In this document: piece by piece, positions 12,542 to 40,253 of the stretch
Layout of the letters: the number at the start of each line of letters is the position of its first letter
Numbering within the stretch: the first letter of the stretch is position 1
Source: a virus
Lineage: Duplodnaviria > Heunggongvirae > Uroviricota > Caudoviricetes
Strand: one strand, 5' to 3'
Length of the DNA: 40,408 nucleotides
IMG/VR virus record: IMGVR_UViG_2529292759_000002
Location: 1 to 40,408 of that record
The notes under the pieces: model-generated
Databases searched by the model: none
Told to the model about the DNA's origin: nothing
Seen by the model: only the letters and a program-made list of their open reading frames with translations
Position numbers and translations under genes: made by a program

Positions 12542-12574
12542 TTACCACAACGGTAACTATTACCACGGTGGTTA
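12542..12574. promoter_or_regulatory. Tandem 15-bp palindromes directly upstream of the terminase small-subunit start
   Basis: TTACCACAACGGTAA (12542-12556) and TTACCACGGTGGTTA (12560-12574), the second ending at the ATG. Confidence 0.5.
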
Positions 12575-13170
12575 TGATGCCTGCTGAACCTAAAACCTAT
12601 AAACGCAAATCAACGCAATTTAAGCCACTAACAGCAATGCAGGAGGCTTATTGCCAGTCATACATCAAAACGCCTGAAAACCAGACTCAGGCAGCGATTA
12701 ACGCAGGATTCTCCCCAAATACAGCGGCAGTTAAAGCCAGTGTCATGATGCGCGATGAACGCATTCAAAAACGGATTGCCGAGTTGATGGAGGAGCGCAA
12801 CAAACGAATGCGCGTCAGTGCTGATTACGTTCTCATGCGCCTGGTGGAGATCGACCAGATGGACGTGATCGACATCCTCAACGACGATGGGAGCCTTAAA
12901 CCAATCCGTGAGTGGCCGAAAATCTGGCGCACTACGCTTAGTGGCTTTGATCTGTCATCGACCATCATGAACATGAACGAGGATTCGATAGAGACAATCC
13001 TCAAAAAAATTAAATGGCCTGACAAGGTGAAGAACCTTGAGCTGATTGGTAAGCATGTTGATGTCAACGCGTTCAAAGAACGTCTGGATGTTAATGTGAA
13101 TGTGACAATTGCTGATCGCATAGCAGCAGCCAGGAAGCGACTCAAAGAACGTCAGGATGGTAATCAGTGA
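12574..13170 (+). CDS. Terminase small subunit
   Basis: Start at the internal ATG (MMPAEPKTYKRK...); about 198 aa; directly precedes the large subunit with 4-bp overlap. Confidence 0.7.
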   Translation: MMPAEPKTYKRKSTQFKPLTAMQEAYCQSYIKTPENQTQAAINAGFSPNTAAVKASVMMRDERIQKRIAELMEERNKRMRVSADYVLMRLVEIDQMDVIDILNDDGSLKPIREWPKIWRTTLSGFDLSSTIMNMNEDSIETILKKIKWPDKVKNLELIGKHVDVNAFKERLDVNVNVTIADRIAAARKRLKERQDGNQ

Positions 13171-14636
13171 CAGATACAGCGTTATCTCCTGAAGAGCAGT
13201 TGATCGAGGATATTGCAGGGTTCACTCACGATCCGCTTGGCTATGCCCTCTATGCGTTCCCGTGGGGGGAAGAGGGTACTGAACTGGCACATGCCACCGG
13301 TCCACGTCAGTGGCAGGCCGATGCGTTCCGAGAGATACGTGATCACCTGCAGAATCCAGAGACGCGCTATCAGCCGCTTATGCTGGCACGCGCTTCTGGT
13401 CACGGTATTGGTAAATCCGCATTCATCTCAATGCTGATCAACTGGGGCATGTCCACTTGCGAGGATTGTAAGGTCGTGGTGACCGCCAACACCGACAACC
13501 AGCTACGAACGAAGACCTGGCCGGAAATTATCAAGTGGTCGAACCTTGCTATCACGAAAGACTGGTTTACCTGTACCGCTACTGCGATGTACAGCAATGA
13601 TCCTGGGCACGACAAGCGGTGGCGAGCTGACGCAATCCCCTGGTCTGAGCACAACACTGAGGCATTCGCCGGACTACACAACGAGCGCAAACGCATCATC
13701 GTGGTATTCGATGAAGCGTCGAACATTGCGGATCTGGTGTGGGAAGTTGCTGAGGGTGCGCTTACGGACGAAGACACTGAGATTATCTGGGTGGCGTTCG
13801 GAAACCCGACGCGTAATACCGGACGTTTCCGTGAATGTTTCCGCAAGTATAAACACCGCTGGAAAACTGCGCAGATTGACAGTCGGACGGTGGAAGGTAC
13901 CAACAAACAGCAGTTGCAGAAATGGGTTGATGACTACGGGGAAGACAGCGACTTCGTTAAAATCCGTGTGCGTGGCATATTCCCTGATGCATCTGAATTG
14001 CAGTTTATCCCTACCGGTCTTACTGACGAGGCAATGAAACGGGTGGTAACCGCTGCGCAGGTTGCACATGCTCCGGTGATAATCGGCGTTGACCCGGCAT
14101 ACTCCGGCGTTGATGACGCTGTGATATACCTGCGGCAGGGGCTACACAGTAAGGTGCTGTGGACTGGCAACAAGACCACTGACGATCTGATAATGGCGAA
14201 GCGTATCGCTGACTTTGAAGACCAGTACCAGGCTGACGCAGTGTTCATCGACTTCGGTTACGGAACTGGTCTGAAGTCAATCGGTGACGGCTGGGGTCGT
14301 ACATGGCAACTTGTTCCGTTTGGTGGCGCGTCTACTGACCCGCAGATGCTCAACAAGCGTGGGGAGATGTTCAACTCATGCAAGACATGGCTGAGGCTGG
14401 GCGGCATGCTTGATGACCAGGAAACAGCGGACGACCTGTCGGCGGCAGAGTACAAAGTTCGAGTGGACGGTAAAATCGTTATCGAACCGAAGGAAGATAT
14501 CAAGGAGCGGCTTGGGCGTTCTCCTGGTAAAGGCGATGCGCTACTGCTGACGTTTGCGTTCCCGGTAGCCAAGAAAACTAATGACCCACGGCAGCAGCAG
14601 GGCAGGGCTATAACAGACTATGACCCATTTGAATGA
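13167..14636 (+). CDS. Terminase large subunit
   Basis: 489 aa; Walker-A-like RASGHGIGKS; VVFDEASNI (Walker B/DExx-like); C-terminal nuclease-like region. Confidence 0.9.
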   Translation: MTDTALSPEEQLIEDIAGFTHDPLGYALYAFPWGEEGTELAHATGPRQWQADAFREIRDHLQNPETRYQPLMLARASGHGIGKSAFISMLINWGMSTCEDCKVVVTANTDNQLRTKTWPEIIKWSNLAITKDWFTCTATAMYSNDPGHDKRWRADAIPWSEHNTEAFAGLHNERKRIIVVFDEASNIADLVWEVAEGALTDEDTEIIWVAFGNPTRNTGRFRECFRKYKHRWKTAQIDSRTVEGTNKQQLQKWVDDYGEDSDFVKIRVRGIFPDASELQFIPTGLTDEAMKRVVTAAQVAHAPVIIGVDPAYSGVDDAVIYLRQGLHSKVLWTGNKTTDDLIMAKRIADFEDQYQADAVFIDFGYGTGLKSIGDGWGRTWQLVPFGGASTDPQMLNKRGEMFNSCKTWLRLGGMLDDQETADDLSAAEYKVRVDGKIVIEPKEDIKERLGRSPGKGDALLLTFAFPVAKKTNDPRQQQGRAITDYDPFE

Positions 14637-14639
14637 TTT

Positions 14640-15488
14640 TTACTTTTGTGTTTTTGATTTTCTTTGATAGGTGGAATTTAAATCACCATTTATATTTACT
14701 AGAGGATTATTCAATAATGTACTGATTTCTGGATTGTTAATTCCAGTAACGCCAAGTTTCTTTACGGACTCATTAAAGTCTTGTAATGATTTTAGACCTA
14801 CAAGCCCATTAGCAATTGTATTATTTGTTGCCAAAGGAATGTTTTTCTTATAGGACTCATATTCGTTTTTTAAATTTTTGTGAGTTTTTTCTAGATTTTC
14901 TAGTTTAGATGTTGTTTCATCAATAACCTTAGATAATTCTAAAATACGAGCTTGTGCTGCGCGCAGTTCTGTCTCCCTCTCTTTCAATTCAGATGTGAGT
15001 TGTCCCATTCTGTCTTTTGAAAGAATTATTTCCTCTTTCATGTCTTGAATGTTTTTTTCAGCGCCTGTTTTTACTTTTTCGTAAGTAATGTCTTTTTTAG
15101 CCAGCAATCTCTGTAGCCGTGTTTCACGTTGTATTTTTCTTGCCTTCCGGTGGTTTTCGATTGAGTCATTATTATCAAGAGGTTTTGCTTGCCATACGTT
15201 AATGATATTGTTTACCCATGGTAATAGGCAGCAGATAGTAATTACAGATAAGCATGGATAAAACATAACAGTTTTCCATGTGCTGTTATCTGAGATGTAT
15301 GAAATTTTATCTATTATATTTGATTTGCTAAAAAACAGATAAAGAAGTGATTTCCAGTTGAAGGCGCACCAGGACATAACAAAAGCACCAAGCACAGGGT
15401 TTTTAGCTCGATGCACGGCAGTATTGGCAGTAGATAAAAACAGCTCTTTGAACGATTCGAACATACTAATTACCTTAAAGTTTTTCAT
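14640..15488 (-). CDS. AT-rich moron: unknown protein with two N-terminal hydrophobic segments and a long coiled-coil region
   Basis: Reverse strand between the terminase and portal genes; markedly AT-rich; start at MKNFKV (15488) or an internal Met at 15464; coiled-coil-like segment ETRLQRLLAKK...ELRAAQARILELSKVIDETTSKLENLEKTHKNLKNE. Confidence 0.6.
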   Translation of the reverse strand: MKNFKVISMFESFKELFLSTANTAVHRAKNPVLGAFVMSWCAFNWKSLLYLFFSKSNIIDKISYISDNSTWKTVMFYPCLSVITICCLLPWVNNIINVWQAKPLDNNDSIENHRKARKIQRETRLQRLLAKKDITYEKVKTGAEKNIQDMKEEIILSKDRMGQLTSELKERETELRAAQARILELSKVIDETTSKLENLEKTHKNLKNEYESYKKNIPLATNNTIANGLVGLKSLQDFNESVKKLGVTGINNPEISTLLNNPLVNINGDLNSTYQRKSKTQK

Positions 15489-15507
15489 GATTATACCTTT
15501 AAGGTAA
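15470..15507. promoter_or_regulatory. Palindromic site (ATACCTTTAAGGTAA 15493-15507) plus half-site (TTACC 15470-15474) at the moron start; a TATAAT hexamer overlaps
   Basis: Minus strand reads TTACCTTAAAGGTATAATCATG; a second ATTACCTTAAAG copy lies 25 bp downstream in the transcript. Confidence 0.5.
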
Positions 15508-15521
15508 TTTGTGGTCATCAG

Positions 15522-15548
15522 GCAAAAAAAATGCCCGGCGAACCGGGC
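15522..15548 (-). terminator. Intrinsic terminator between the tRNA and the moron (minus strand)
   Basis: Minus-strand GCCCGG-TTCG-CCGGGC hairpin followed by TTTTTTTT. Confidence 0.6.
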
Positions 15549-15711
15549 GAACTGGAAGCAATGAGTTATGCCTTCCGTGGCTGTACGGGTTTACAGCATG
15601 AAGTCATCGCAATGGCGTCCTGCTGTAAAAAGGGCGGTGATAGGCCTTCAAGGGAAACCATCACCGCCAAGCCCCTGGAACTTCTGGCATCACGGTCCTC
15701 AGGCGTGATTC

Positions 15712-15788
15712 TGGCGTGGCATGCAGGATTCGAACCTGCGACCAACCGCTTAGAAGGCGGTTGCTCTGTCCAACTGAGCTAATGCCAC
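15712..15788 (-). tRNA. tRNA-Arg (anticodon UCU), argU-like
   Basis: Hand-folded cloverleaf: acceptor GTGGCAT/ATGCCAC, D-stem GCTC/GAGC, anticodon stem ACCGC/GCGGT with loop CTTCTAA, T-arm GCAGG-TTCGAAT-CCTGC, encoded CCA; 77 nt. Confidence 0.85.
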
Positions 15789-16436: not shown

Positions 16437-18116
16437 ATGGCGGAAACAACTAAAGAGCGATTGAACAAACAGTTCGCACAACTTGAAAGCGAGCGTCAGT
16501 CGTTCGAGTCGCACTGGCGCGAGTTGAGTGATTACATCAACCCGCGTGGTTCCCGCTTTCTGACTTCTGAGGTTAACCGTAACGATCGACGCAATACACG
16601 CATTATTGATTCGACCGGGACTATGGCGGCGCGCACTCTTGCCAGCGGCATGATGTCAGGCATAACAAGCCCCGCCCGTCCGTGGTTTCGCCTGGCTACG
16701 CCAGATCCTGAAATGATGGACTATGGCCCTGTTAAGTTGTGGCTTGAGGCAGTTCAGAACCGCATGAACGATATGTTCAATAAGTCGAATCTCTACCAGT
16801 CCCTTCCGCAGTTATACGGAAGCCTCGGCACATACAGCACTGGTGCAATGGCGGTGCTGGAGGATGACGAGGACATCATTCGCACAATGCCATTCCCGAT
16901 AGGCAGTTACTACCTGGCTAACTCACCTCGTGGCAGTGTGGACACCTGTTTCCGCAAGTTCTCTATGACTGTTCGTCAGCTTGTTCAGGAGTTCGGGCTA
17001 AATAACGTCAGCGAATCCGTAAAAAGCATGTGGGAAAGCGGCACCTACGAGAAGTGGATTGAAGTGATGCATTCGGTTTACCCGAACATTGACCGCGATA
17101 CATCGAAGCTGGATAGCAAGAACAAGCCATTCAAATCGGTTTATTACGAGGTTGGTGGCGATAACGACAAGTTGTTGCGTGAGTCCGGATTCGATGAGTT
17201 TCCAATTATGGCTCCGCGCTGGGAAGTTAACGGCGAAGATGTTTATGGATCATCATGCCCGGGTATGCTGGCGCTTGGATCTGTTAAGGCATTGCAGCTT
17301 CTTCAGAAGCGCAAGTCGCAGTTGATTGATAAAGCCACCAATCCGCCGATGGTTGCTCCGACTTCCCTCAAGAATCAGCGCGCCTCCCTTCTTCCTGGCG
17401 ACATCACGTATATCGATCAGATTACTGGTCAGGATGGCTTCAGGCCTGCTTATCTGGTTAACCCCAGTACAGCAGATTTGGTGGCAGACATTCAGGACAC
17501 TCGTCAAATCATTAACAGCGCCTACTTTGTCGATCTGTTCATGATGTTGCAGAACATCAATACCCGCTCGATGCCTGTTGAAGCGGTGATCGAAATGAAA
17601 GAAGAAAAACTTCTGATGTTGGGGCCGGTTCTGGAGCGTCTGAACGACGAATGTCTTAATCCTCTCATTGACCGCGCTTTCTCGATGATGGTGCGTAAAA
17701 ACATGCTGCCGCCACCGCCTGACGCGATGGAAGGCATGCCCCTGAAGGTCGAATACATTTCCGTCATGGCTCAGGCGCAGAAGTCTATCGGCCTGTCCAG
17801 TCTGGCGTCCACGGTTAACTTCATTGGTCAACTTGCGCAAGCGAAACCAGAAGCTCTCGACAAACTCAACGTTGATCAGGCGATCGATGCATTCGCTGAT
17901 ATGTCCGGAGTGTCTCCAACCGTCATTGTTCCGCAGGAACAGGTTGAGCAGGCTCGCCAGCAACGGGCACAGCAACAACAGCAGCAACAAATGATGGCGA
18001 TGGGGATGGCGGCGGCACAGGGTGCCAAGACGCTAAGCGAAGCTAAAACTTCGGATCCGAGTGTTTTGTCAGCTATGGCGAATGCAGTTAGTGGTCAGGG
18101 TGGGCAATCACAATGA
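16437..18116 (+). CDS. Portal protein
   Basis: 559 aa; follows the terminase block and precedes scaffold and capsid; size and order typical of podovirus portals. Confidence 0.8.
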   Translation: MAETTKERLNKQFAQLESERQSFESHWRELSDYINPRGSRFLTSEVNRNDRRNTRIIDSTGTMAARTLASGMMSGITSPARPWFRLATPDPEMMDYGPVKLWLEAVQNRMNDMFNKSNLYQSLPQLYGSLGTYSTGAMAVLEDDEDIIRTMPFPIGSYYLANSPRGSVDTCFRKFSMTVRQLVQEFGLNNVSESVKSMWESGTYEKWIEVMHSVYPNIDRDTSKLDSKNKPFKSVYYEVGGDNDKLLRESGFDEFPIMAPRWEVNGEDVYGSSCPGMLALGSVKALQLLQKRKSQLIDKATNPPMVAPTSLKNQRASLLPGDITYIDQITGQDGFRPAYLVNPSTADLVADIQDTRQIINSAYFVDLFMMLQNINTRSMPVEAVIEMKEEKLLMLGPVLERLNDECLNPLIDRAFSMMVRKNMLPPPPDAMEGMPLKVEYISVMAQAQKSIGLSSLASTVNFIGQLAQAKPEALDKLNVDQAIDAFADMSGVSPTVIVPQEQVEQARQQRAQQQQQQQMMAMGMAAAQGAKTLSEAKTSDPSVLSAMANAVSGQGGQSQ

Positions 18117-18409
18117 CAGATTACGAAGACGATCAACTGAAAGAAGAAAACGCCCGTAAGCAACGTGACATGGCACAGCGTGAAATTGATGACATTCGCT
18201 TTGTCATGAGCAGTGAACAGGGGCGTCGCGTTGTCTGGTCGGTGCTGGAGAAAGGCCGTGTGTTTTCCGCTATCTCACCGATGGACGCTATGGCAATGGC
18301 ATTTAATGAGGGGCAACGCAATCTGGCGCTGGAACTGTTTCAGCGCGTTATGGCGCATTGCCCTGAACAGTATTTGAAGATGGCCAAAGAGGCCAGTGAA
18401 CAGGAGTGA
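18113..18409 (+). CDS. Hypothetical head-module protein
   Basis: 98 aa; overlaps both neighbours. Confidence 0.45.
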   Translation: MTDYEDDQLKEENARKQRDMAQREIDDIRFVMSSEQGRRVVWSVLEKGRVFSAISPMDAMAMAFNEGQRNLALELFQRVMAHCPEQYLKMAKEASEQE

Positions 18410-19107
18410 TCATGAATTTATTTGAGCGTTTGCTGTATCGCCGTCTTTGCAATGAGCAACCAGTCGATGGTGGAGCAGCTCCTGCTGCGTCAGAACCGTC
18501 AGCGCCTGCAGGTGATAACCCTGCTCCAGTTGGTGATCCATCACAACAGGAAGGTGATAAGCCACAACCTGTTGCTGATGGCGATAAACCTGCTGATGAC
18601 AAAAAGCCTGAAAACGATAAGCAGGATGAAAAAAAGGGCGGCGATAAACCAGAGGGTGCGCCTGAGAAGTACGAGTTTCAGGCTGCCGAAGGCGTAGAGC
18701 TGGATACAGAAGCGTTGAAGGAATTCGAGCCGGTGGCGCGAGAACTAAACCTGACCAACGAGCAAGCGCAAAAGCTGGTTGATGCTTATCCGAAGATTCT
18801 GGCAGGTGTGCAGCAGCGCCAGGCAGAAGCCTGGCAGAAAACAACCGAGCAGTGGGCTGCTGATGTAAAAGCTGACAAAGAAATCGGTGGCGACAAGTTG
18901 ATTTCTAACCTTAGCGCCGCACAGCGTGCGCTTGACCAGTTCGGGACACCTGAACTCAAAGAATATCTGAACACCACCGGGCTGGGTAATCACCCTGATC
19001 TGGTCAAAACGTTCGTGAAAATCGGAAAGGCGATGTCTGAAGATGGCATGGTCACCGGTGGTAATGAAGGCCAGCGTAGTGCGGCCGAAGTGCTCTATGG
19101 CAAATAA
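18406..19107 (+). CDS. Scaffolding protein candidate
   Basis: 233 aa; Pro/Ala/Asp/Lys-rich low-complexity N-terminal half and helical C-terminus; between portal and major capsid. Confidence 0.5.
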   Translation: MIMNLFERLLYRRLCNEQPVDGGAAPAASEPSAPAGDNPAPVGDPSQQEGDKPQPVADGDKPADDKKPENDKQDEKKGGDKPEGAPEKYEFQAAEGVELDTEALKEFEPVARELNLTNEQAQKLVDAYPKILAGVQQRQAEAWQKTTEQWAADVKADKEIGGDKLISNLSAAQRALDQFGTPELKEYLNTTGLGNHPDLVKTFVKIGKAMSEDGMVTGGNEGQRSAAEVLYGK

Positions 19108-19115
19108 GAGAGGAA

Positions 19116-20108
19116 ATGACAATGGCTGTTAAAGGCTTAACTGCGCTGACGCTGGCTGACTGGGGTAAGCGCGTCGATCCAAACGGGAAAGTCGATAAGA
19201 TTATCGAGCTTCTCGGTCAAACTAACCCGATCCTTCAGGATATGCCTTTTGTCGAAGGGAACCTTCCTACCGGACACCGAACCACCATTCGTTCTGGTTT
19301 ACCTTCAGCTACCTGGCGTTTGCTGAACTATGGCGTACAGCCAAGCAAATCAACCACAGTACAGGTAACCGATTCCGTTGGCATGCTGGAAACCTATGCG
19401 GAAGTCGATAAGTCACTGGCTGATCTGAACGGCAATACCGCCGAATTCCGCCTGTCTGAAGACCGCGCATTTATTGAAGCGATGAATCAGCAGATGGCGC
19501 AGACGCTGTTTTATGGTGATTCCAGCGTTAACCCTCAGCAGTTTATGGGACTGTCCTCCCGCTATTCCAGCCTGTCTGCGGGTAATGCTCAGAACATCAT
19601 TGATGCTGGTGGCACGGGTACAGATAACACCTCAATCTGGTTAGTGGTGTGGGGCGAAAACACCGTGCATGGCATCTTCCCGAAAGGGCAGAAGGCTGGC
19701 ATCCAGATGGAAGATAAAGGCCAGGTGACACTGGAAGATGCTAATGGCGGCAAGTACGAAGGCTATCGCACCCATTACAAATGGGATAACGGACTTGCTC
19801 TGCGTGACTGGCGTTATGTTGTTCGCATTGCAAACATCGATGTCAGCAATCTTTCAGAACCATCCTCTGCCGCAAATATTGCGAAGTTGATGGTTAAAGC
19901 ACTGCATCGCATTCCAAACCGTGGCATGGGCCGCCCGGTGTTCTACATGAACCGCACTGTAGGCCAGGCTCTTGATCTGCAGTCTCTGGAGAAAACATCT
20001 CTGGCTATCAGCGTAAAAGAGACAGAAGGCGAGTGGTGGACTTCATTCCGTGGTGTACCAATCCGTGAAACTGATGCGCTTCTGGAAACAGAAGCCCGCG
20101 TGGTGTAA
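19116..20108 (+). CDS. Major capsid protein
   Basis: 330 aa; position after the scaffold; followed by a stem-loop (20125-20144). Confidence 0.75.
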   Translation: MTMAVKGLTALTLADWGKRVDPNGKVDKIIELLGQTNPILQDMPFVEGNLPTGHRTTIRSGLPSATWRLLNYGVQPSKSTTVQVTDSVGMLETYAEVDKSLADLNGNTAEFRLSEDRAFIEAMNQQMAQTLFYGDSSVNPQQFMGLSSRYSSLSAGNAQNIIDAGGTGTDNTSIWLVVWGENTVHGIFPKGQKAGIQMEDKGQVTLEDANGGKYEGYRTHYKWDNGLALRDWRYVVRIANIDVSNLSEPSSAANIAKLMVKALHRIPNRGMGRPVFYMNRTVGQALDLQSLEKTSLAISVKETEGEWWTSFRGVPIRETDALLETEARVV

Positions 20109-20159
20109 CGCCTGTTATTAACCTGTGGGTCGTAACAGACCCACTAATGGAGAAAGAAG

Positions 20160-20597: not shown

Positions 20598-20598
20598 G

Positions 20599-20943: not shown

Positions 20944-20959
20944 GCCTCGCGAATCCGAC

Positions 20960-20982: not shown

Positions 20983-20987
20983 CAGGA

Positions 20988-29714: not shown

Positions 29715-29719
29715 ATTAA

Positions 29720-32389: not shown

Positions 32390-32686
32390 ATGCAAGCGAT
32401 AGGATTCATTGTTTATATCGTCGTTGGCCTTTTTCAGTTGGCAGCAATTATGGCTGGGCTTGAATCATGGTGGGGATTGCACTGGATAATTGCAGCCCCC
32501 ATTGCTTTCATCGTGAGCTATATTCCATTTGTTGGAGCGATTGTTGGTATGGTTGGCGCTGTGGATGTATGGCGGTGGGAGTGGTGGCAGGCTGGCCTTC
32601 TCTTCTTTGGTGGGATCATCTTTGCTATTGTCTGCGGTGGAATGTCATCATTTTTCGAATGGCTATCATTCAGAAAAGGGACGTGA
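32390..32686 (+). CDS. Small Trp-rich integral membrane protein (candidate superinfection-exclusion or lysogenic-conversion factor)
   Basis: 98 aa with 2-3 hydrophobic helices; located after the ejection proteins; followed by a bidirectional terminator. Confidence 0.45.
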   Translation: MQAIGFIVYIVVGLFQLAAIMAGLESWWGLHWIIAAPIAFIVSYIPFVGAIVGMVGAVDVWRWEWWQAGLLFFGGIIFAIVCGGMSSFFEWLSFRKGT

Positions 32687-32756
32687 CATGTCACAGGCCG
32701 CTTTCGCGGCCTTGTTTTTAACGAATGCCACCGCCGCCCGGGCGGGAATCCGCAGA

Positions 32757-32783
32757 CACAAAAAAGCCCGCGCTGCGGGCTTC
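32757..32783. terminator. Bidirectional intrinsic terminator
   Basis: GCCCGC-GCT-GCGGGC hairpin flanked by AAAAAA upstream and TTCTATT downstream; T-tract strongest for the minus strand. Confidence 0.7.
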
Positions 32784-32785
32784 TA

Positions 32786-33418
32786 TTAATGCAGTTTATC
32801 TTTGCTTATAACCAGTAGTCTGTGGGTATGCACATCTTTATCACTGCCCCAACAGAAATCAGCCCACTGGCTATAGAAATCATCCCATGATGTCATGAAG
32901 CTAAGAGGTCTATCTTCTTCAGAGCCATCTGAAACGTATACATTATATCCTGGGGTGTTTATAGCCCAAGAAATCATTCTTTCCCAGAATCTTCTCCCAT
33001 CGATTGTTTGTTGCTCATCAGATACAACGATCGCATATTGCTCTAGGAAGAACTGAAAAAAAATCTGAGGCAAACCATGAACAGCACGGTCATGAATAAC
33101 ATTAGGCGTACGCCATACCATGATCTGCGTACATGTTCTTTTGGCTTCGACGATATCTTCCCGAAAGATTAACTTAACCGCATACACCGTTTCTGGAGTA
33201 TCGCTGGTAGTAATCATTCTGTAATGATCGCCATTACAAGATTTTACAAGGCGATAACCATAAGGTGTTGTGAATCCCGGAAGAACGAAATCAACCACAC
33301 CTTTCGCTAAGTAGCTTTCGGTGTGACTAGTGTTCTTCTCAGACATGTTCAGTTTTCTATCGAAATCTGCTTCTGGGATAATGTATGGCATCGCTTTTCT
33401 TGTTGTATTTGTTCTCAT
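32786..33418 (-). CDS. Accessory protein of unknown function (210 aa), AT-rich
   Basis: Reverse strand within the late region; GGAGG 3 nt before the ATG; own upstream palindromic site and strong terminator. Confidence 0.55.
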   Translation of the reverse strand: MRTNTTRKAMPYIIPEADFDRKLNMSEKNTSHTESYLAKGVVDFVLPGFTTPYGYRLVKSCNGDHYRMITTSDTPETVYAVKLIFREDIVEAKRTCTQIMVWRTPNVIHDRAVHGLPQIFFQFFLEQYAIVVSDEQQTIDGRRFWERMISWAINTPGYNVYVSDGSEEDRPLSFMTSWDDFYSQWADFCWGSDKDVHTHRLLVISKDKLH

Positions 33419-33565: not shown

Positions 33566-34261
33566 TCAGAAGAACCCTGCCTTGTCGTTGATGTACTCCG
33601 CGTGGGTCTGGATATCACGCAGGCATTTGCTCACACCGACGATGTAGCAGAACATGGTGGTCAGTTCCGCCGCCGCGCCCGATACGTCGTGCCCGTCTTC
33701 CTGTAACTGGTTCAGCAGATTCATCAGCAGTGAGTTCTCCGTCAGGCCGAGAACACCAGACGGCGAATGAATCAGGCTACGGTAGCCGGGCTTCAGTGGG
33801 GCACTGTAGGTTTTGTTCTCTATCTTCATCGCCTGCATTACTGCTGACGCCGTGGCGTTGGCTACCTGGTCGGCAACCATCTTTATGCGTTCTTCCTGCG
33901 GGAGCGAGTTTTTAATGTAACTTCCGGTGCGGCGGATCTGAGGAAGAACCTCACCTGTAACCCATTTACGAAAGCGGTAGGGGATAGTGCCTGGTGTCAC
34001 TGCGTCGCGGCAGCGGAGGATCAGTGTGTAGAGGCCTGACTCGGAGATGATGATCGATTCTTGCTCACCGCCAGGGGTGTCGGTTGAAGCGACGCCCTTC
34101 TCATCATCATCAAGTTTTCGAACAGCATCTCGATGGTTTGCTATGCCTATAGCCCGACAAACATCTGAAGCGATAAACCATGGCTCACCATTAATGACGA
34201 TTACCCGTATATCGGCTTGGGATTCGAAAGAAAAAATGGACGTGCTTTTTGTAGCTGTCAT
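33566..34261 (-). CDS. Bro-N / KilA-N domain antirepressor (Ant-like)
   Basis: 231 aa; N-terminal pattern IRVIVINGEPWFIASDVCRAIGIANHRDAVRKL...ESGLYTLILR typical of Bro-N antirepressors; C-terminal domain paralogous to the small upstream gene. Confidence 0.75.
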   Translation of the reverse strand: MTATKSTSIFSFESQADIRVIVINGEPWFIASDVCRAIGIANHRDAVRKLDDDEKGVASTDTPGGEQESIIISESGLYTLILRCRDAVTPGTIPYRFRKWVTGEVLPQIRRTGSYIKNSLPQEERIKMVADQVANATASAVMQAMKIENKTYSAPLKPGYRSLIHSPSGVLGLTENSLLMNLLNQLQEDGHDVSGAAAELTTMFCYIVGVSKCLRDIQTHAEYINDKAGFF

Positions 34262-34418
34262 AGTGGTTACCTTTTAGTCTGGTTAATCACCACTACCGAC
34301 GCCAATCGGTTGGTGGTGAACTGTGCAGGGTTGGCGTAACCGGCTAAAAGGACCCGGCGCACCTTTCGGTGCCCCCACACAGCCCACCATAATACGAATG
34401 TGGCCGTGCTATACGCAT

Positions 34419-34438
34419 AAAAAAACCGCTTGCGCGGT
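34419..34438 (-). terminator. Intrinsic terminator between the small SOS-box gene and the antirepressor gene
   Basis: Minus-strand ACCGCGCAAGCGGT hairpin followed by TTTTTTT. Confidence 0.55.
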
Positions 34439-34530
34439 GAATGCGCCTTTTAGTAATCCGGGACGCCAATCCCGGCACTGGATTTTGCCAGTGCTCGATT
34501 ACTATGGCACAAGAGGAGTGCGTTGTAAAT

Positions 34531-34545
34531 TTACCGCAAAGGTAA
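34531..34545. promoter_or_regulatory. 15-bp palindrome (TTACCGCAAAGGTAA) in the antirepressor upstream region
   Basis: Perfect site between the stop of the small gene and the terminator/leader of the antirepressor gene. Confidence 0.45.
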
Positions 34546-34576
34546 ATATAAGCACTCCATTTGGTGATTGCAAACC

Positions 34577-34834
34577 TTATCTGGTTTGTTTTCGTAATTG
34601 TTCGGCACAATAGTCGAGATGTGTTTGCAGATCCTGCATAGACATCTGTGAGCTGGTGACGTAGTTAATCAGTGCAGTCAGTTCGGCAAGTGGGCCATCG
34701 ACATTAAATCCATCCTTATCGAGATCCCGGAGTAATTTCATCAAGTGCGATCCCTCCACCAGTGACCTGACGCCTCCCGGCGTGTGAATCCTTTCGGTAA
34801 ATCCGTCTTCCAGTGGATAGTGATACTGCTGCAT
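34577..34834 (-). CDS. Small protein (85 aa) homologous to the C-terminal domain of the downstream antirepressor; SOS-box-preceded
   Basis: Start taken at the internal ATG (MQQYHYPLEDG...) because a LexA-type box and a palindromic site lie inside the longer ORF; GGAG Shine-Dalgarno 8 nt upstream; shared pattern IH.P.GV..L.E.S.LM.LL..L..DG..V.G...ELT...Y...L.D.QTH..Y with Ant residues about 155-225. Confidence 0.6.
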   Translation of the reverse strand: MQQYHYPLEDGFTERIHTPGGVRSLVEGSHLMKLLRDLDKDGFNVDGPLAELTALINYVTSSQMSMQDLQTHLDYCAEQLRKQTR

Positions 34835-34853
34835 CTTATCTTCTCCATGCAAT

Positions 34854-34873
34854 AACTGTATATTTATACAGTA
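34854..34873. promoter_or_regulatory. LexA (SOS) box
   Basis: AACTGTATATTTATACAGTA: CTGT-N8-ACAG with AT-rich spacer, 18/20 to the E. coli consensus; about 22 bp upstream of the small gene start. Confidence 0.75.
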
Positions 34874-34910
34874 GCAAATAATTTGTTTGCTATCCAGCAC
34901 GTTTTGCAAA

Positions 34911-34925
34911 TTACCTGAAAGGTAA
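34911..34925. promoter_or_regulatory. 15-bp palindrome (TTACCTGAAAGGTAA) upstream of the SOS box
   Basis: Perfect site about 40 bp upstream of the LexA box on the transcribed strand. Confidence 0.5.
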
Positions 34926-35029
34926 TATCTATTCGTATTTACAGCCTTTCTATCCATATGTGGTTTTCCAGGTAATAGAATAACCAGATATGCGGCGCAA
35001 CGGGTGCTGCGACTATCTGGAGATTTAAC

Positions 35030-38000
35030 ATGACGGTCTCAACCGAAGTTGACCACAACGAATACACCGGTAACGGCGTTACGACATCGTTTCCGTATAC
35101 TTTTCGAATTTTCAGAAAATCAGACCTGGTTGTTCAGGTGTCTGACCTGAACGGAAACGTAACAGAATTGGTTCTGGATACCGGTTATACGGTAACTGGG
35201 GCGGGCACTTATAGTGGCGGTTCTGTGGTTCTTCCGTCTCCGCTTGCTACTGGATGGCGAATTACGATAGATCGTGTGCTTGATGTAGTGCAGGAGACAG
35301 ACCTTCGCAATCAGGGAAAATTTTTCCCCGAAGTGCATGAAGATGCCTTTGACTACCTGACGATGCTGATCCAGCAATGTTTTGGGTGGTTCAGACGTGC
35401 ATTGATGAAACCATCTTTGCTTGCAAAATATTACGATGCAAAGCAAAACAAAATTTCTAACCTTGCAGATCCATCATTTGAGCAGGACGCTGTAAATAAT
35501 CGCTCAATGCGTAATTATGTCGATGCTGCAATCGCCGGGGTTGTTGGTGGTTTTGGTTGGTTTATTCAGTATGGTTCTGGGGCTGTGTACCGAACGTTCC
35601 AGGATAAAATGCGTGATGCTATTAGCCCCAAAGATTTTGGAGCTGTTGGTGATGGTATAAATGACGATTCCACTGCAATAAGCGCGTGCCTTGAAGCCTC
35701 ATCTCCAGGTTATAAAATTGACGGATTAGGGCTTACTCTTAAAGTATCAACTCTTCCGGATGTCAGTCGATTTAAAAATGCTCGTTTTTTATTTGAGAGA
35801 ATACCGGGCCAGCCTCTTTTTTATGCTTCTGAAGATTTTATCCAGGGAGAGTTATTTAAAATTACAGATACACCGTGGTACAACGCCTGGACGCAGGATA
35901 AAACGTTTGTATATGACAATGTCATCTATGCGCCTTTTATGGCTGGAGACCGCCATGGTGTAAATAACCTCCATGTTGCATGGGTTCGCTCAGGAGATGA
36001 CGGGAAGACCTGGACAACGCCGGAATGGCTTACAGATTTACATGAAAACTATCCCACAGTTAACTATCACTGCATGAGTATGGGGGTTGTCAGAAATCGC
36101 CTTTTTGCTGTAATTGAGACGCGGACCGTGAGCGGAAATAAACTGCAGGTTGCAGAGTTGTGGGATCGCCCAATGAGTCGCAGCCTTCGCGTTTATGGTG
36201 GTATAACGAAAGCAGCAAATCAGCAAGTCGCTTATATTCGCATTACTGATCACGGATTATTTGCTGGTGATTTTGTCAACTTCTCAAACTCTGGTGTTAC
36301 AGGTGTTACCGGGAATATGACGGTGACTACTGTTATTGATAAAAATACTTTTACAGTTACGACGCAAAATACCCAGGATGTGGATCAGAATAACGAGGGT
36401 AGATACTGGAGTTTTGGTACATCATTTCACTCGTCACCATGGAGAAAAACCAGTCTTGGAACTATTCCTTCTTTTGTTGACGGAAGCACTCCTGTTACTG
36501 AGATTCACAGTTTTGCGACGATTAGCGATAACAGTTTTGCTGTTGGCTACCATAATGGTGATATTGGTCCACGCGAGCTTGGGATACTCTATTTCTCTGA
36601 TGCTTTCGGTTCTCCTGGTAGCTTTGTTCGCAGACGCATACCTGCAGAATATGAGGCGAATGCATCTGAGCCATGTGTAAAATATTATGATGGCATTCTG
36701 TATCTGACGACCAGGGGGACATTAAGTACTCAACCCGGTAGTTCATTGCACAGAAGCTCTGATTTAGGTACATCATGGAATTCTCTTCGCTTCCCAAATA
36801 ATGTTCATCACTCAAACCTTCCTTTTGCCAAAGTTGGCGATGAGCTGATTATTTTTGGCAGTGAGCGCGCATTTGGTGAGTGGGAAGGAGGAGAACCTGA
36901 TAACCGTTATGCAGGAAACTATCCAAGAACATTTATGACCAGAGTTAACGTCAATGAGTGGAGTCTGGATAATGTAGAGTGGGTTAATGTTACTGATCAG
37001 ATTTATCAGGGCGGAATAGTTAACTCTGCGGTTGGTGTTGGTTCAGTTTGTATCAAAGACAACTGGCTGTACTACATTTTCGGTGGGGAAGACTTTCTAA
37101 ACCCATGGAGCATAGGGGATAACAACAGAAAATATCCTTATGTTCACGATGGTCACCCGGCTGATTTGTATTGTTTCAGGGTGAAAATTAAACAGGAAGA
37201 ATTTGTTTCAAGGGATTTTGTCTACGGAGCCACTCCTAACAGAACGCTTCCTACTTTTATGTCGACGTCAGGCGTGAGGACGGTTCCTGTACCCGTTGAT
37301 TTCACAGATGATGTTGCCGTCCAGTCACTGACTGTCCATGCAGGTACATCAGGACAAGTTCGCGCGGAAGTCAAACTTGAGGGTAATTACGCCATTATTG
37401 CGAAGAAAGTACCGTCTGATGATGTTACCGCTCAGAGATTAATCGTTAGCGGCGGTGAAACAACGTCTTCAGCAGATGGTGCAATGATAACGTTGCATGG
37501 TTCCGGAAGCAGTACTCCACGTCGCGCGGTATATAACGCACTCGAACATCTTTTTGAGAACGGAGATGTTAAACCTTATCTTGATAATGTAAATGCTCTT
37601 GGTGGTCCGGGAAACAGGTTCTCGACAGTTTATCTTGGCTCCAATCCTGTGGTTACCAGTGACGGAACATTAAAGACAGAGCCGGTCTCTCCTGACGAAG
37701 CATTGCTGGATGCCTGGGGTGACGTCAGGTATATCGCTTATAAATGGCTGAACGCTGTCGCTATAAAGGGGGAAGAAGGGGCGAGGATACATCATGGTGT
37801 AATCGCGCAGCAACTTCGTGATGTTCTTATTTCTCACGGACTCATGGAAGAAGAAAGCACAACATGCCGCTATGCCTTTCTTTGCTATGACGATTATCCC
37901 GCAGTATATGATGACGTCATTACTGGCCAAAGGGAAATGCCGCTGACTGATAATGACGGGAGCATCATTGTTGATGAGGATGATAATCCAGTGATGGTAA

Positions 38001-38149
38001 TAGAAGACATCATTGAGCGCGTTGAAATAACGCCAGCAGGATCTAGATGGGGGGTCAGACCTGATCTCTTATTCTATATCGAGGCAGCATGGCAGCGCAG
38101 AGAAATGGATAAGATAAAAGAGCGGGTTCAGTCTCTGGAAGAACGTTAA
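35030..38149 (+). CDS. Tailspike / tail fibre depolymerase with T7 gp17-like N-terminal anchor and C-terminal intramolecular chaperone domain
   Basis: 1039 aa; N-terminus YTGNGVTTSFPYTFRIFRKSDLVV resembles the T7 tail-fibre N-terminal domain; DFGAVGDGINDDSTAI motif typical of beta-helix (pectate-lyase-like) enzymes; Asp-box-like SGDDGKTW and SDLGTSW; C-terminal region (YLDNVNALGG...RIHHGVIAQQLRDVL...) resembles peptidase-S74 chaperone domains. Confidence 0.8.
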   Translation: MTVSTEVDHNEYTGNGVTTSFPYTFRIFRKSDLVVQVSDLNGNVTELVLDTGYTVTGAGTYSGGSVVLPSPLATGWRITIDRVLDVVQETDLRNQGKFFPEVHEDAFDYLTMLIQQCFGWFRRALMKPSLLAKYYDAKQNKISNLADPSFEQDAVNNRSMRNYVDAAIAGVVGGFGWFIQYGSGAVYRTFQDKMRDAISPKDFGAVGDGINDDSTAISACLEASSPGYKIDGLGLTLKVSTLPDVSRFKNARFLFERIPGQPLFYASEDFIQGELFKITDTPWYNAWTQDKTFVYDNVIYAPFMAGDRHGVNNLHVAWVRSGDDGKTWTTPEWLTDLHENYPTVNYHCMSMGVVRNRLFAVIETRTVSGNKLQVAELWDRPMSRSLRVYGGITKAANQQVAYIRITDHGLFAGDFVNFSNSGVTGVTGNMTVTTVIDKNTFTVTTQNTQDVDQNNEGRYWSFGTSFHSSPWRKTSLGTIPSFVDGSTPVTEIHSFATISDNSFAVGYHNGDIGPRELGILYFSDAFGSPGSFVRRRIPAEYEANASEPCVKYYDGILYLTTRGTLSTQPGSSLHRSSDLGTSWNSLRFPNNVHHSNLPFAKVGDELIIFGSERAFGEWEGGEPDNRYAGNYPRTFMTRVNVNEWSLDNVEWVNVTDQIYQGGIVNSAVGVGSVCIKDNWLYYIFGGEDFLNPWSIGDNNRKYPYVHDGHPADLYCFRVKIKQEEFVSRDFVYGATPNRTLPTFMSTSGVRTVPVPVDFTDDVAVQSLTVHAGTSGQVRAEVKLEGNYAIIAKKVPSDDVTAQRLIVSGGETTSSADGAMITLHGSGSSTPRRAVYNALEHLFENGDVKPYLDNVNALGGPGNRFSTVYLGSNPVVTSDGTLKTEPVSPDEALLDAWGDVRYIAYKWLNAVAIKGEEGARIHHGVIAQQLRDVLISHGLMEEESTTCRYAFLCYDDYPAVYDDVITGQREMPLTDNDGSIIVDEDDNPVMVIEDIIERVEITPAGSRWGVRPDLLFYIEAAWQRREMDKIKERVQSLEER

Positions 38150-38152
38150 AAA

Positions 38153-38180
38153 AAAGCCCGCAAAATATTGCGGGTATCAA
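38153..38180 (-). terminator. Hairpin terminator after the tailspike gene, best formed on the minus strand
   Basis: GCCCGCAA-AATA-TTGCGGGT preceded by A8 on the plus strand (U8 after the hairpin on the minus strand); only ATCAAAAAC follows on the plus strand. Confidence 0.5.
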
Positions 38181-38455: not shown

Positions 38456-38860
38456 ATGTCTGCTCAAGTAACAAGTGAGCAATTAAATCAGTTGCTTAGT
38501 TTTGGTTCTCTTGCTGCAGTTATTGCAGGTGTCCCTCCGGAGGTTGCTTTAGGGGCTTTGGCTGGGGCGGTAATTTTTGTTACCTCTGCAGTAGAGTACC
38601 CCATCCGTCGCCGGGTGCTCCTGTCGATGCTCAGCTTTCTTTGCGGCCTTCTCTTTTACAAACCAGCAGCATCAATTCTTATCGGCATAGCCAGCCTGAT
38701 CCCTACCATCACGCAGGACTCTTTTGAAAAAGGGATTGTTTTCTCTGCAGGCGCATTCGTGTCAGCAATTGTCGCTGTGCGTATTGGTATATGGCTCTAT
38801 CACCGTTCCGATAATCCACGCGAGTTAATTCCGGGGAGAAAAGACGATGGTAACGCATGA
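38456..38860 (+). CDS. Holin-like membrane protein (lysis cassette, first gene)
   Basis: 134 aa with 3-4 hydrophobic helices and a charged C-terminus; immediately upstream of a second membrane protein and the endolysin. Confidence 0.55.
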   Translation: MSAQVTSEQLNQLLSFGSLAAVIAGVPPEVALGALAGAVIFVTSAVEYPIRRRVLLSMLSFLCGLLFYKPAASILIGIASLIPTITQDSFEKGIVFSAGAFVSAIVAVRIGIWLYHRSDNPRELIPGRKDDGNA

Positions 38861-39155
38861 GTTTTTTTTGCTTATCACTAATGCAGTTATTTGCACTGGC
38901 ATAGCAATTCGCGTTGTCACATTCCGGCGTAACGGCTCTCAACATCGAAGGTGGGGAGGATGGCTTGCTTATTTCCTGATTGTTGCTGCGGCCAGTATTC
39001 CTGTTCGAGTCGCCTATGCAATCTGGTTACGTACGCCAATGGCTGTGGATTTATCTGAGGTCATTATCAACGCTGTCATGCTGGCTGCGGTTATTAAAAC
39101 GCGCGGTAACGTCGTTCAAATTTTTAAAGTATCGAGGTCTAAACATGGAGATTAA
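38847..39155 (+). CDS. Second small membrane protein of the lysis cassette (holin or antiholin candidate)
   Basis: 102 aa, 2-3 hydrophobic helices; GGGGAG Shine-Dalgarno; overlaps both neighbours. Confidence 0.5.
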
Positions 39156-39774
39156 ACAATTCCAGCGAGCTGCTGGTATCAGCGAGGCACTGGCCGCACG
39201 CTGGTTCTCGCATATAACTTCTGCGATGAAAGAGTTTGGTATCAGCAAAGCAGAAGATCAGGCAATGTTTATTGCTCAAGTCGGGCATGAGTCTGGGGGC
39301 TTCACCAGGTTGCAGGAGAATTTCAACTACAGTGTCAGCGGACTGGCTAACTTCGTTCGGGCTGGGCGTCTCACTCAGGGGCAGGCTAATGCACTGGGGC
39401 GCCGTGCTGGTGAACCACCATTGCCACTTGAGCGCCAGCGCGCGATCGCAAATATGGTATACAGCAAACGCATGGGGAACAATGCCCCTGGTGATGGCTG
39501 GAATTACCGAGGGCGCGGACTTATCCAGATTACCGGTTTGAATAACTATCGTGATTGCGGAAACGGTCTGAAGGTTGACCTGCTGGAGAGCCCTGAACTG
39601 CTGGCGCAGGACGGATATGCGGCTCGTAGCGCGGCGTGGTTCTTCGCCAGCAAAGGATGCATGAAGTATACCGGCGATATTGCACGTGTAACTCTGATTA
39701 TCAATGGTGGCCGGAACGGCATCGACGACCGGCGAGCGCGGTACATCACTGCCAGTAAGGTGCTGGCGGTATGA
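39145..39774 (+). CDS. Endolysin, glycoside hydrolase family 19 (chitinase-like) type
   Basis: Start at the internal ATG (MEIKQF...) with GAGGT Shine-Dalgarno; motifs [27 protein letters not shown] and [10 protein letters not shown] resemble GH19 lysozymes. Confidence 0.75.
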
Positions 39775-40253
39775 TCTGGGCATTCGTAAAAGCATACTGG
39801 AAACAGTTTCTTATCGTGGCAGTGCTTGCTGTTCTGGTCATATCAGGAGTGGTTGCCTGGAATATACACGGCAGTCGCCAGTACGATGCCGGGTATGCTC
39901 AGGCGGAAGAAGACCGCAAAGCCGAAGAAGACAAAGTTCGTCAGTACTACGAACAGGAGAAAGTGACCAATGAACGTGAAGCTCAGCAGAGGATCGACCA
40001 GGCGCGCAATGATGCTCTTGATGCTGCCGCTAGCGCTGGCCGGTTGCAGCAACAACTCTTTGCCATCCGTGAGCAGCTCAGGCAGTATAACGCCATTGTC
40101 GGCGCTGGGTCGTCAGCCGCAGACACCGGAGTTTTGCTTGCCGACGTGCTCAGCAAATCTCTCGAGAGAAACAGACAACTGGCAGAGTATGCTGACCGGG
40201 CAGCCGAAGCCGGAAGAGTCTGCGAAAAACAGTACGACACTTTGACCAGATAG
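39771..40253 (+). CDS. Rz-like inner-membrane spanin
   Basis: 160 aa; N-terminal transmembrane helix ([17 protein letters not shown]) then coiled-coil; overlaps the endolysin stop; embedded lipoprotein ORF in another frame. Confidence 0.7.
40009..40245 (+). CDS. Rz1-like outer-membrane lipoprotein spanin, embedded in the Rz gene
   Basis: ORF in a different frame inside Rz; lipobox-like signal [13 protein letters not shown]; Pro/Ser-rich mature part; exact start (39970, 40009 or 40012) uncertain. Confidence 0.55.
   Translation: MMLLMLPLALAGCSNNSLPSVSSSGSITPLSALGRQPQTPEFCLPTCSANLSRETDNWQSMLTGQPKPEESAKNSTTL

Follow-up and report, generated by a model that had tools for sequence, protein, structure and literature searches.

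The virus record IMGVR_UViG_2529292759_000002 of IMG/VR comprises 40,408 nucleotides, and this whole stretch, which we refer to as the window, carries 53 annotated protein-coding genes together with the other features set out in Table 1. An integrase gene lies beside the attachment (att) core at the left end and is followed by leftward recombination genes, a divergent repressor/cro switch, rightward replication and accessory genes and a small regulator; the late genes then run in the order terminase, portal, capsid, tail, internal virion proteins, tailspike and lysis, and a second att core stands at the right end. We are highly confident that the window represents the entire, circularly closed genome of a temperate podophage that belongs to the genus Uetakevirus (the epsilon15/phiV10 group), and that its nearest described relative is vB_EcoP_ZX5 (hereafter ZX5). 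A preliminary description, made from the sequence alone, had read this layout as a mosaic of lambdoid early genes and a podovirus-type virion module, and the gene order it gave is present, as is the difference from lambda and P22, in which the lysis genes lie between Q or gene 23 and the terminase rather than after the tailspike. The mosaic itself does not stand as something new: the architecture is the fixed and already described layout of Uetakevirus, and Bordetella phage BPP-1 also has the structural-to-lysis-to-att order.

Table 1. Features of the window, with positions, strand and supporting matches (aa, amino acids; ORF, open reading frame)
Feature	Position	Strand	Matches and remarks
Att core ATTGAGTGGGAATGATT (1-17) and phage P′ arm	1-45		First copy of the 45-bp terminal overlap
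P4-type tyrosine integrase	208-1464	+	PF13356, PF22022, PF00589; 99% identical to the phiV10 and ZX5 integrases
Ser/Thr metallophosphatase ('PPase')	1467-2246	-	PF00149; real coding sequence probably 1467-2126, 219 aa
MT-A70 methyltransferase, PerC-family activator, AlpA-family regulator (probable excisionase)	2123-3423	-	PF05063, PF06069, PF05930; 96-100% identical to phiV10/ZX5
RecT annealing protein and YqaJ-type exonuclease	3473-5404	-	PF03837, PF09588
Divergent immunity switch: helix-turn-helix repressor 6009-6593 (-), cro-like 76-aa gene 6748-6978 (+)	6009-6978		PF01381
Replication: HTH_36/DnaT-domain initiator, lambda-P-family helicase loader	7345-8918	+	PF13730 and PF17948; PF06992
'ea' block: EaE-like, Ead/Ea22, 265-aa protein, DUF551, DUF4752-like, ASCH-like	9442-12124	+	PF13935, PF04448
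Small regulator, epsilon15 gp49 homologue	12114-12455	+	phrog_536 'transcriptional regulator'; 96% identical to phiV10p55
TerS 12496-13170, TerL 13167-14636	12496-14636	+	PF03592 (TerS), phrog_2; 97-100% identical to phiV10
Moron slot: 292-aa coiled-coil protein 14640-15518, tRNA-Arg(TCT) 15712-15788	14640-15788	-	ARAGORN, Rfam; phrog_4780
T7-type portal	16437-18116	+	PF12236 Head-tail_con, E 1.4e-188
Head genes: Bbp19-like, 233-aa 'protease' in the scaffold slot, HK97-fold major capsid protein (gp7 type), Bbp16-like cement, 114-aa protein, gp10 staple	18113-21317	+	PF25181, PF20911, PF21190, PF21628
Adaptor 201 aa (21317-21922), nozzle 823 aa (21922-24393), T7 gp11/gp12 slots	21317-24393	+	
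gp13-like (154 aa) and gp14-like (181 aa) internal virion proteins	24393-25402	+	
837-aa internal protein with embedded lytic transglycosylase; 600-aa protein	25402-29714	+	
824-aa virion protein, probable remote homologue of the T7 gp16 body	29720-32194	+	
Variable slot at the end of the structural operon: 57- and 98-aa ORFs (+), 210-aa gene (-)	32204-33418		phrog_3075, phrog_1349
Antirepressor module: Bro-N antirepressor 33566-34261, C4 RNA 34309-34394, IsrK small RNA 34419-34494, small ORF within 34577-34957	33566-34957	-	PF02498 (Bro-N)
Chimeric 1,039-aa tailspike: Uetakevirus particle-binding N-terminus (aa 1-165), predicted K1 endosialidase and C-terminal S74 chaperone (aa 193-1039)	35030-38149	+	
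Lysis cassette: holin-like membrane protein, holin, GH19 endolysin (39145-39774), Rz i-spanin, embedded Rz1 (39970-40245)	38456-40253	+	PF16931, PF05449, PF00182, PF10721
Second att core and P′ arm	40364-40408		With the P arm on its left, an intact attP

The early and late regions were compared separately, using window positions 1-12600 and 12574-37000 as megablast queries against 50,697 phage records, and both regions match the same small set of phages. Identities are 97-98% with phiV10, phiv142-3, vB_EcoP_ZX5, PAS61, HEMP4 and TL-2011b, and 75-81% with Enterobacter phage Tyrion and the Salmonella phages SPN1S and epsilon15; all of the phages matched in this comparison are classified as Uetakevirus. 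When the 53 window genes were compared protein by protein with seven reference genomes by tblastn, phiV10 and ZX5 each matched 45 of them and epsilon15 matched 39, with the order preserved, while matches elsewhere number 7 in CUS-3, 4 in lambda, 2 in P22 and none in T7. The suggestion that the genome resembles the epsilon15-like temperate podoviruses is thus correct. Intergenomic similarity, taken from blastn alignments as aligned fraction multiplied by identity (a VIRIDIC-like value, not VIRIDIC itself), is 0.785 to ZX5, 0.735 to phiV10 and 0.386 to epsilon15, against 0.082 to CUS-3, 0.012 to lambda, 0.006 to P22 and 0 to T7. These blastn and tblastn comparisons amount in miniature to the clustering that the preliminary description had put forward as a check, and they place both the early and the late region inside Uetakevirus. 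The annotated genes include no tape-measure, tube or sheath gene of the sort that a long tail would need, an adaptor and a nozzle are present, which fits a short tail, and the structural module groups with podoviruses; neither of the outcomes that the preliminary description had named as refuting its reading was encountered.

The intergenomic similarity of at least about 70% that applies to Uetakevirus is reached through phiV10, which is a species of the genus recognized by the International Committee on Taxonomy of Viruses, and through ZX5, and the synteny from TerS to Rz, attP and int is kept, with the core proteins, as it is in Uetakevirus. Two points weigh against the assignment. Similarity to epsilon15, the type species, is only 0.39, and genus membership therefore rests on phiV10 and ZX5; and the short-tailed morphology would be carried over to the window phage from a relative with which it has about 80% of its genome in common. 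With a similarity of about 0.79 to ZX5, the window, whose unique length is 40,363 bp, would be a separate species under the usual 95% rule, and is a new species-level variant at most. Related genomes are not rare in the host, and 162 of 5,426 complete Escherichia coli genomes hold at least 80% of window positions 1-25000.

The gene order of ZX5 (MW722083) is identical to that of the window throughout, and 80% of the window aligns with it at 97.9% identity. Proteins identical in the two phages are the repressor, the antirepressor and three of the five encoded by the lysis cassette; Rz and Rz1 reach 99% (99-100% across the cassette) and the endosialidase tailspike 99.6%, and the attP core is the same. 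By electron microscopy ZX5 has a head of 60 nm and a short tail of 15 nm; its host is a K1 strain (O87:H52:K1), and its tail protein is an endosialidase (PMC9782041). Unlike ZX5, the window has an epsilon15-type RecT and exonuclease, a NinI-like phosphatase beside int and a phiV10-type replication initiator, and the ea genes, the moron after TerL and the small genes after the gene for the 824-aa protein are all different. Phage phiV10 (NC_007804) is collinear with the window and has the same attP and integrase, with most structural proteins 97-100% identical, but it encodes an O157-specific tail fibre followed by an O-acetyltransferase gene (oac) where the window has an endosialidase and no oac, and the recombination modules of the two differ.

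More distant relatives retain the architecture with less of the sequence. Epsilon15 (NC_004775), a model system for cryo-electron microscopy, shares with the window the TerS-to-Rz, attP and int arrangement, the gp7 capsid, the gp10 staple, the adaptor (85% identical), the nozzle (88%), and RecT and the exonuclease (91-92%); its major capsid protein is only 43% identical, its gp16 and gp17 are 32% and 28% identical to their window counterparts and its repressor 42%, and it has an endorhamnosidase tailspike, O-antigen conversion genes and no lambda-P-type loader. BPP-1, a temperate podophage of Bordetella (Rauchvirus), has the order TerS, TerL, portal, Bbp19, 'protease', major capsid protein, Bbp16, two tail genes, internal protein, transglycosylase protein, giant protein, fibre, lysis and att/int, as in the window, but differs in its T7-like replication module (DNA polymerase, primase and helicase), its diversity-generating retroelement and its host clade.

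The early region warrants closer examination because P, the phosphatase and RecT, all of which are present, had been described as close lambda relatives. This holds only for the phosphatase, which is 66% identical to lambda NinI over 85% of its length and is absent from phiV10, ZX5 and epsilon15. For P, identity is 31% with the lambda protein and 100% with that of phiV10, and RecT has no lambda counterpart because lambda encodes Bet. RecT and the exonuclease are 91-92% identical to the epsilon15 proteins (RecT 92%) and have no tblastn match in phiV10, ZX5 or lambda; phiV10 has a RecE-RecT fusion, to which the window genes are unrelated, as they are to the ZX5 genes. The repressor is 100% identical to those of phiV10 and ZX5, and terminator-like hairpins flank the switch. 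None of the 53 annotated proteins matches lambda N, Q, cII, cIII or O, and there is likewise no Pfam match for N, Q, cII or O; tblastn matches in lambda are restricted to the phosphatase, P, Ea22 and a marginal one for int, and only 1.2% of the window aligns with lambda. DNA sharing with lambdoid phages was judged from a sample of 60 of 489 matches spread along the early region, and among the matches listed the only stretch of high identity is that at about 9700-12120, in the ea block, which is 90-98% identical to Stx phages, P22-like/ST104 phages and HK140-type phages. We note that within this block a 265-aa protein (10390-11187, + strand) resembles phrog_887, 'queuine tRNA-ribosyltransferase', over the first half of that family (E 5e-104); Pfam and the genomes of phiV10, ZX5, epsilon15 and lambda offer no match for it.

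What the window does share with lambda and P22 is the succession of int, a leftward recombination operon, a divergent repressor/cro pair, rightward replication genes, accessory genes and a late regulator, together with the P family, a NinI-like phosphatase and ea genes. P22 is additionally similar in having an antirepressor region between its ejection genes and tailspike and att-int downstream of the tailspike. The differences are substantial. The phosphatase is the only nin gene in the window and lies beside int on the opposite strand, with ea genes in the place of nin, and no structural protein is shared. 'Lambdoid' thus describes, as far as the protein comparisons go, a functional layout and a few exchangeable accessory genes, and not the core early genes. 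The phosphatase gene itself adjoins int on the minus strand and is not in a nin-like position, and at the corresponding position of the L008 lysogen (NZ_CP195498) the Prokaryotic Genome Annotation Pipeline calls a 219-aa protein. The gp49-type regulator, which stands directly upstream of TerS, is by this position likely to be the late-gene activator.

At the other end of the late region, the tailspike is a chimera whose two parts have different affinities. The N-terminus is 68-72% identical to those of phiV10 and epsilon15, while the remainder is 95% identical to the CUS-3 endosialidase at the protein level; window positions 35728-38120 are 99.5% identical to CUS-3 DNA, and the junction falls between residues 165 and 193. 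Matches to PF12218, PF12217 (E 1e-233), PF12195, PF12219 and PF13884 show that the endosialidase N-terminal extension, the beta-propeller with its inserted beta-barrel, the stalk domain and the S74 chaperone are all present, and the protein is predicted to be an endosialidase acting on the K1 capsule. Of 5,426 complete E. coli genomes, 72 have the same junction, APEC O1 among them, with up to 99.9% identity in the rows listed. Between 35 and 39 kb the GC content falls to 0.43-0.46. The tailspike gene is not followed by an acetylase gene for O-antigen or capsule (oac or neuO); the 306-bp gap beyond it contains a strong minus-strand terminator-like hairpin (38157-38174) with no gene to terminate, and this orphan terminator may be a relic of a lost minus-strand conversion gene.

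An alternative view of the right end is that it marks the boundary of an integrated prophage, with attL and attR at the two ends and bacterial DNA just past the right-hand core, as the 'attR' label of the preliminary description implied. The first base of the window is indeed that of the att core, which is where software that calls prophage boundaries would cut, the guaA stop codon lies inside the core, and relatives are frequent as guaA prophages. The exact 17-bp core ATTGAGTGGGAATGATT occurs at 1-17 and 40364-40380 (none expected in shuffles) and encodes the last codons of guaA (IEWE*), including the stop; the same attP core has been published for phiV10, epsilon15 and ZX5, and integration of ZX5 at the 3′ end of guaA has been shown experimentally (PMC9782041). 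What follows the right-hand core, however, is not host DNA. Positions 1-45 equal 40364-40408 exactly, up to the final base, such that the 28 nucleotides at 40381-40408 repeat the phage P′ arm at 18-45, and the flanks of the right-hand core (60 nucleotides on the left and 28 on the right) are identical to the attP of ZX5 and nearly so to that of phiV10. The lysogen NZ_CP195498 differs from the window in having unrelated host sequence after its attR core; homology ends at window position 40380 in 11 of the 12 lysogen matches listed, and the window has not one host-only base. Because the P′ arm rather than host DNA follows the right-hand core, the window contains no host DNA and corresponds to a circle of 40,363 bp that is written out from the att core and overlaps itself by 45 bp. 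The right end is therefore, by sequence, attP and not attR, and the lysis cassette adjoins attP. A variant of the prophage reading invokes the junction of two tandem prophages, and a tandem dilysogen would likewise yield a P-O-P′ junction with the same terminal sequence as a closed circle. We consider a prophage origin of the ends, in either form, unlikely.

Two further readings address the origin of the genome as a whole, and both fare worse. It might be a recent and novel hybrid in which the early region of a lambdoid siphovirus was newly joined to a podovirus structural module near 12.5 kb, and the lambda-like early layout, the P-family, NinI-like and Ea22-like genes and the 2.4-kb ea block shared at high DNA identity with Stx and P22-like phages speak for such an event. 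Yet the same early region, in the same order and at 97-100% protein identity, stands on the same late region in phiV10, ZX5 and PAS61, the arrangement recurs at lower identity in epsilon15, Tyrion and SPN1S, and DNA identity with phiV10 and ZX5 is continuous across the 12.1-12.6 kb junction; the absence of lambda N, Q, cII, cIII and O matches and the small fraction aligned with lambda point the same way. The presence of the junction in the phiV10 and ZX5 records leads us to reject a fresh hybrid of lambda and a podovirus, which we regard as very improbable: because the join is unchanged in phiV10 and ZX5 and has diverged in epsilon15, it is old and genus-wide and not a mosaic event of the window genome. 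The close match of the tailspike body to CUS-3, in protein and in DNA, could instead suggest a P22-like (Lederbergvirus) K1 prophage of the CUS-3 type, and three ea-block proteins also match that phage (those of 95 and 93 aa at 97-98%, and the DUF551 protein at 77%). The aligned fraction of the window is nonetheless 8% for CUS-3 and 0.6% for P22, the portal, major capsid, tail and ejection genes belong to different families, and the head-binding domain of the tailspike itself is of Uetakevirus type. This structural module rejects a P22-like identity, to which we attach a negligible probability. The mosaicism that is real is small in scale and is seen relative to the sister phages; it affects the tailspike body, RecT and the exonuclease, the phosphatase, the ea genes and two moron slots, one after TerL and one after the gene for the 824-aa protein. 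The exchanges of the CUS-3-type endosialidase, of RecT with its exonuclease, of the ea genes and in the moron slots are recent.

With the window placed in Uetakevirus, the head genes follow the expected pattern. The major capsid protein (19116-20108) matches the epsilon15 GP7 family PF20911 (E 2e-149), with BPP-1 3j4u as its best match in PDB (E 1e-128) and epsilon15 gp7 3j40 behind it (E 2e-85), and the staple matches PF21628, Gp10-like (E 1e-51); the cement and staple genes had been overlooked in the preliminary description. That description had placed a scaffold gene ahead of the capsid gene, and while the position is right the identity is not supported, as the 233-aa protein in this slot falls in phrog_458, 'protease', and has no Pfam or PDB match. 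The adaptor matches the 'Connector Protein' 8ck1_E (E 4e-26) and the nozzle the 'Tail Nozzle' 8ck1_A (E 8e-218) of a structure whose source may be Cobetia phage carin-1. PHROG labels in these gp11/gp12 slots are 'tail protein' and 'tail tubular protein', and the epsilon15 record cites an HHpred match of gp11 to T7 tail tubular protein A (3j4b). No usable NCBIfam match was found for ten structural and regulatory proteins of the window.

Five consecutive proteins of 154, 181, 837, 600 and 824 aa fill the interval 24393-32194, and it had been suggested that their sizes parallel T7 gp13-gp16. The likeness to T7 extends over the succession of portal, scaffold slot, major capsid protein, adaptor, nozzle, gp13, gp14, large internal proteins, fibre or spike, and lysis genes (gp8 to gp17 and then 17.5/18.5/18.7 in T7). 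There are also clear differences: the terminase genes are upstream of the portal in the window and after the fibre in T7; the window has an additional 600-aa protein and a gp7/BPP-1-type capsid with staple and cement; the transglycosylase, which is at the N-terminus of T7 gp16, is in the separate 837-aa protein; and the window phage is temperate and has no RNA polymerase. No window protein has a BLASTP or tblastn match in T7. The 181-aa protein matches PF24072, T7_gp14, with 31.2 bits against a curated cutoff of 27 over residues 1-163. At relaxed thresholds Pfam gives a single match for the 154-aa protein, T7 Gp13, PF11090 (sub-threshold, E 0.088), and a single one for the start of the tailspike, the N-terminal domain of the T7 tail fibre (E 0.009). 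In the 837-aa protein, residues 249-403 match the PDB entries 9vvp_L, 'Gp29' (E 1e-38), and 7q47, 'Endolysin', and its PHROG labels are 'head protein', 'endolysin' and 'tail injection transglycosylase'. Sequence searches with the 600-aa protein gave no Pfam match and no real PDB match. The 824-aa protein has no Pfam match and no PDB relative by sequence or profile search, and its AlphaFold2 model is all-alpha (predicted local distance difference test score 75), with no convincing match in a fold search and none to gp16; the family is very large, with 5,129 clusters at 50% identity (E at most 1e-3) on contigs of about 38-40 kb that come from numerous Proteobacteria.

Profile comparisons reach further. 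We aligned families all against all with HHalign in a 10×9 matrix, with T7-side alignments built from viral contigs and window-side alignments from Uetakevirus and BPP-1 genomes; the profile of the 824-aa family holds 120 diverse representatives and the other window-side profiles 5-8 sequences each. The two top cells lie on the positional diagonal, with off-diagonal values of at most 8%. The 154-aa family aligns with the gp13 family at 92.0% (E 6.7e-7, 113 columns), and the 824-aa family with gp16 at 81.5% (E 1.1e-5) over 515 collinear columns that pair query 104-662 with gp16 534-1145; for the latter pair, controls in which the template was reversed or, in ten cases, column-shuffled stayed at or below 0.3%. 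Values are 16.9% for the spike N-terminus against that of gp17 and 8.4% for the portal against gp8, and comparisons of the 181-, 837-, 600- and 233-aa families with their positional T7 counterparts are negative in this underpowered test. Because most window profiles hold so few sequences, and because the portal and gp8, which belong to one Pfam family, score no higher than 8.4%, such negatives carry little weight. The parallel with T7 thus appears to be in part real homology, for the portal and gp14 by Pfam and for gp13 and the gp16 body by HHalign, while Pfam (E 0.009) and HHalign (17%) hint at homology of the fibre N-terminus. The suggested correspondence with gp13-gp16 is accordingly borne out for gp13 and gp14, is probable for the body of gp16 and falls short for gp15.

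Several observations weigh against a thoroughgoing equivalence with the T7 tail and core. The adaptor and nozzle gave only 0.2% and 0.9% against gp11 and gp12, in the same underpowered comparison, and no counterpart of gp15 was found by Pfam, BLAST or HHalign (0.1% for each of the 837-, 600- and 824-aa proteins). Genetic work on epsilon15 (Guichard, 2013) reportedly placed gp15 and gp17 in the tail tube and not in the internal core. Finally, the placement of the 600-aa protein in the virion is tentative. The distal part of this block is not constant among close relatives. The guaA prophage of L008 (NZ_CP195498.1, 28426-35415, corresponding to window 25402-32194) is 98-99% identical to the window up to the gp14-like gene, beyond which the transglycosylase protein is only 42% identical and, in place of the 600- and 824-aa proteins, the prophage encodes a 1,129-aa DUF919 protein and another of 283 aa. 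Because it is replaced in an otherwise 98-99% identical prophage, the distal internal-protein block behaves as an exchangeable cassette. We put forward tentatively, giving it somewhat less than even weight, the proposal that the functions of gp16 are split in Uetakevirus, with the transglycosylase in the 837-aa protein and the gp16 'body' in the 824-aa protein, and that the distal block is a hot spot for swapping. We note a conflict between sources over the epsilon15 proteins: an 'Epsilon 15' row among the ejection proteins in Table 1 of PMC8954989 gives gp11 as 229 aa, gp12 as 499 aa and gp13 as 708 aa, whereas the RefSeq record of epsilon15 has 201, 825 and 154 aa. The row probably refers to a different, P22-like phage and we do not rely on it.

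The 292-aa protein between TerL and portal is absent from phiV10, ZX5 and epsilon15, and phiV10 has an Sf6 gp66-like gene in this slot. When ten accessory proteins were run through PADLOC, nothing emerged beyond weak coiled-coil matches of the 292-aa protein (LmuB and JetC, E 1e-4 or weaker), which we regard as compositional. Overlapping the tRNA is a plus-strand ORF at 15531-15782 (annotated as p04 in phiV10), which is unlikely to be a genuine gene. The variable slot contains convergent terminator-like hairpins at 32695-32712 (+) and 32762-32784 (-); its genes have no match in phiV10 or epsilon15, and in ZX5 there is a single weak and partial match, to the 57-aa ORF (42% over 67%). In the antirepressor module the C4 antisense RNA (RF01695) scores 77.7 bits against a gathering threshold of 45 and IsrK (RF01394) 77.9 bits against 50; the two RNAs lie back to back at 34309-34494 on the minus strand, directly upstream of the Bro-N gene, and would make up a P1/P7-style c4-ant control module in the slot occupied by immI in P22. 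ORFs at 34323-34613 (+) and 34344-34610 (-) overlap the C4 and IsrK RNAs and are probably spurious. Both the minus-strand moron with its tRNA-Arg and the minus-strand antirepressor module had been passed over in the preliminary description.

A life cycle consistent with these features can be proposed. The P4-type integrase would recombine attP with the 3′ end of guaA, as has been shown for ZX5, whose core is identical. Judging from their families, the repressor and the cro-like gene would form the primary immunity switch and the C4/IsrK-type RNAs a second level of immunity, controlling the Bro-N antirepressor, and replication would depend on the DnaT-domain initiator and the lambda-P-family loader. 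The gp49-type regulator, positioned ahead of one long rightward late operon, would govern late expression. The terminase would package DNA through the T7-type portal into an HK97-fold gp7 capsid with gp10 staples and Bbp16-type cement, to which the families of these proteins point, and capsid structures of the gp7/gp10/Bbp16 type are known for epsilon15 and BPP-1. The adaptor and nozzle would make up the short tail. Two published accounts describe ejection of the internal core in epsilon15 and T7 to form a trans-envelope conduit (PMC8954989, PMC12391199), and the gp13-like, gp14-like, transglycosylase-bearing, 600-aa and gp16-like proteins may similarly constitute an internal core that is ejected as a trans-envelope channel. 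Endosialidase tailspikes would bind and degrade the K1 polysialic acid capsule, as their domain families and the K1 host of ZX5 suggest, and lysis would be brought about by the holins, the GH19 endolysin and the Rz/Rz1 spanins, encoded by the last genes before attP.

As a discovery the genome is of little value, since its layout is the textbook one of a named genus and the phage most closely related to it had earlier been isolated, imaged and found to integrate at guaA. In practice, the window may confidently be annotated as a complete Uetakevirus genome specific for the K1 capsule, of a kind that occurs in K1 strains of extraintestinal pathogenic E. coli and avian pathogenic E. coli; its 'attR' label should be replaced by attP, and it should be treated as a closed circle. 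The profile comparisons provide a firmer basis for naming the 154-, 181- and 824-aa proteins gp13-, gp14- and gp16-like, and the block encoding the 837-, 600- and 824-aa proteins can be flagged as the variable part of the delivery machinery. If gp16 is indeed split and its parts are exchanged as a cassette, then these phages would offer a tractable view of how a podophage ejectosome is rebuilt.

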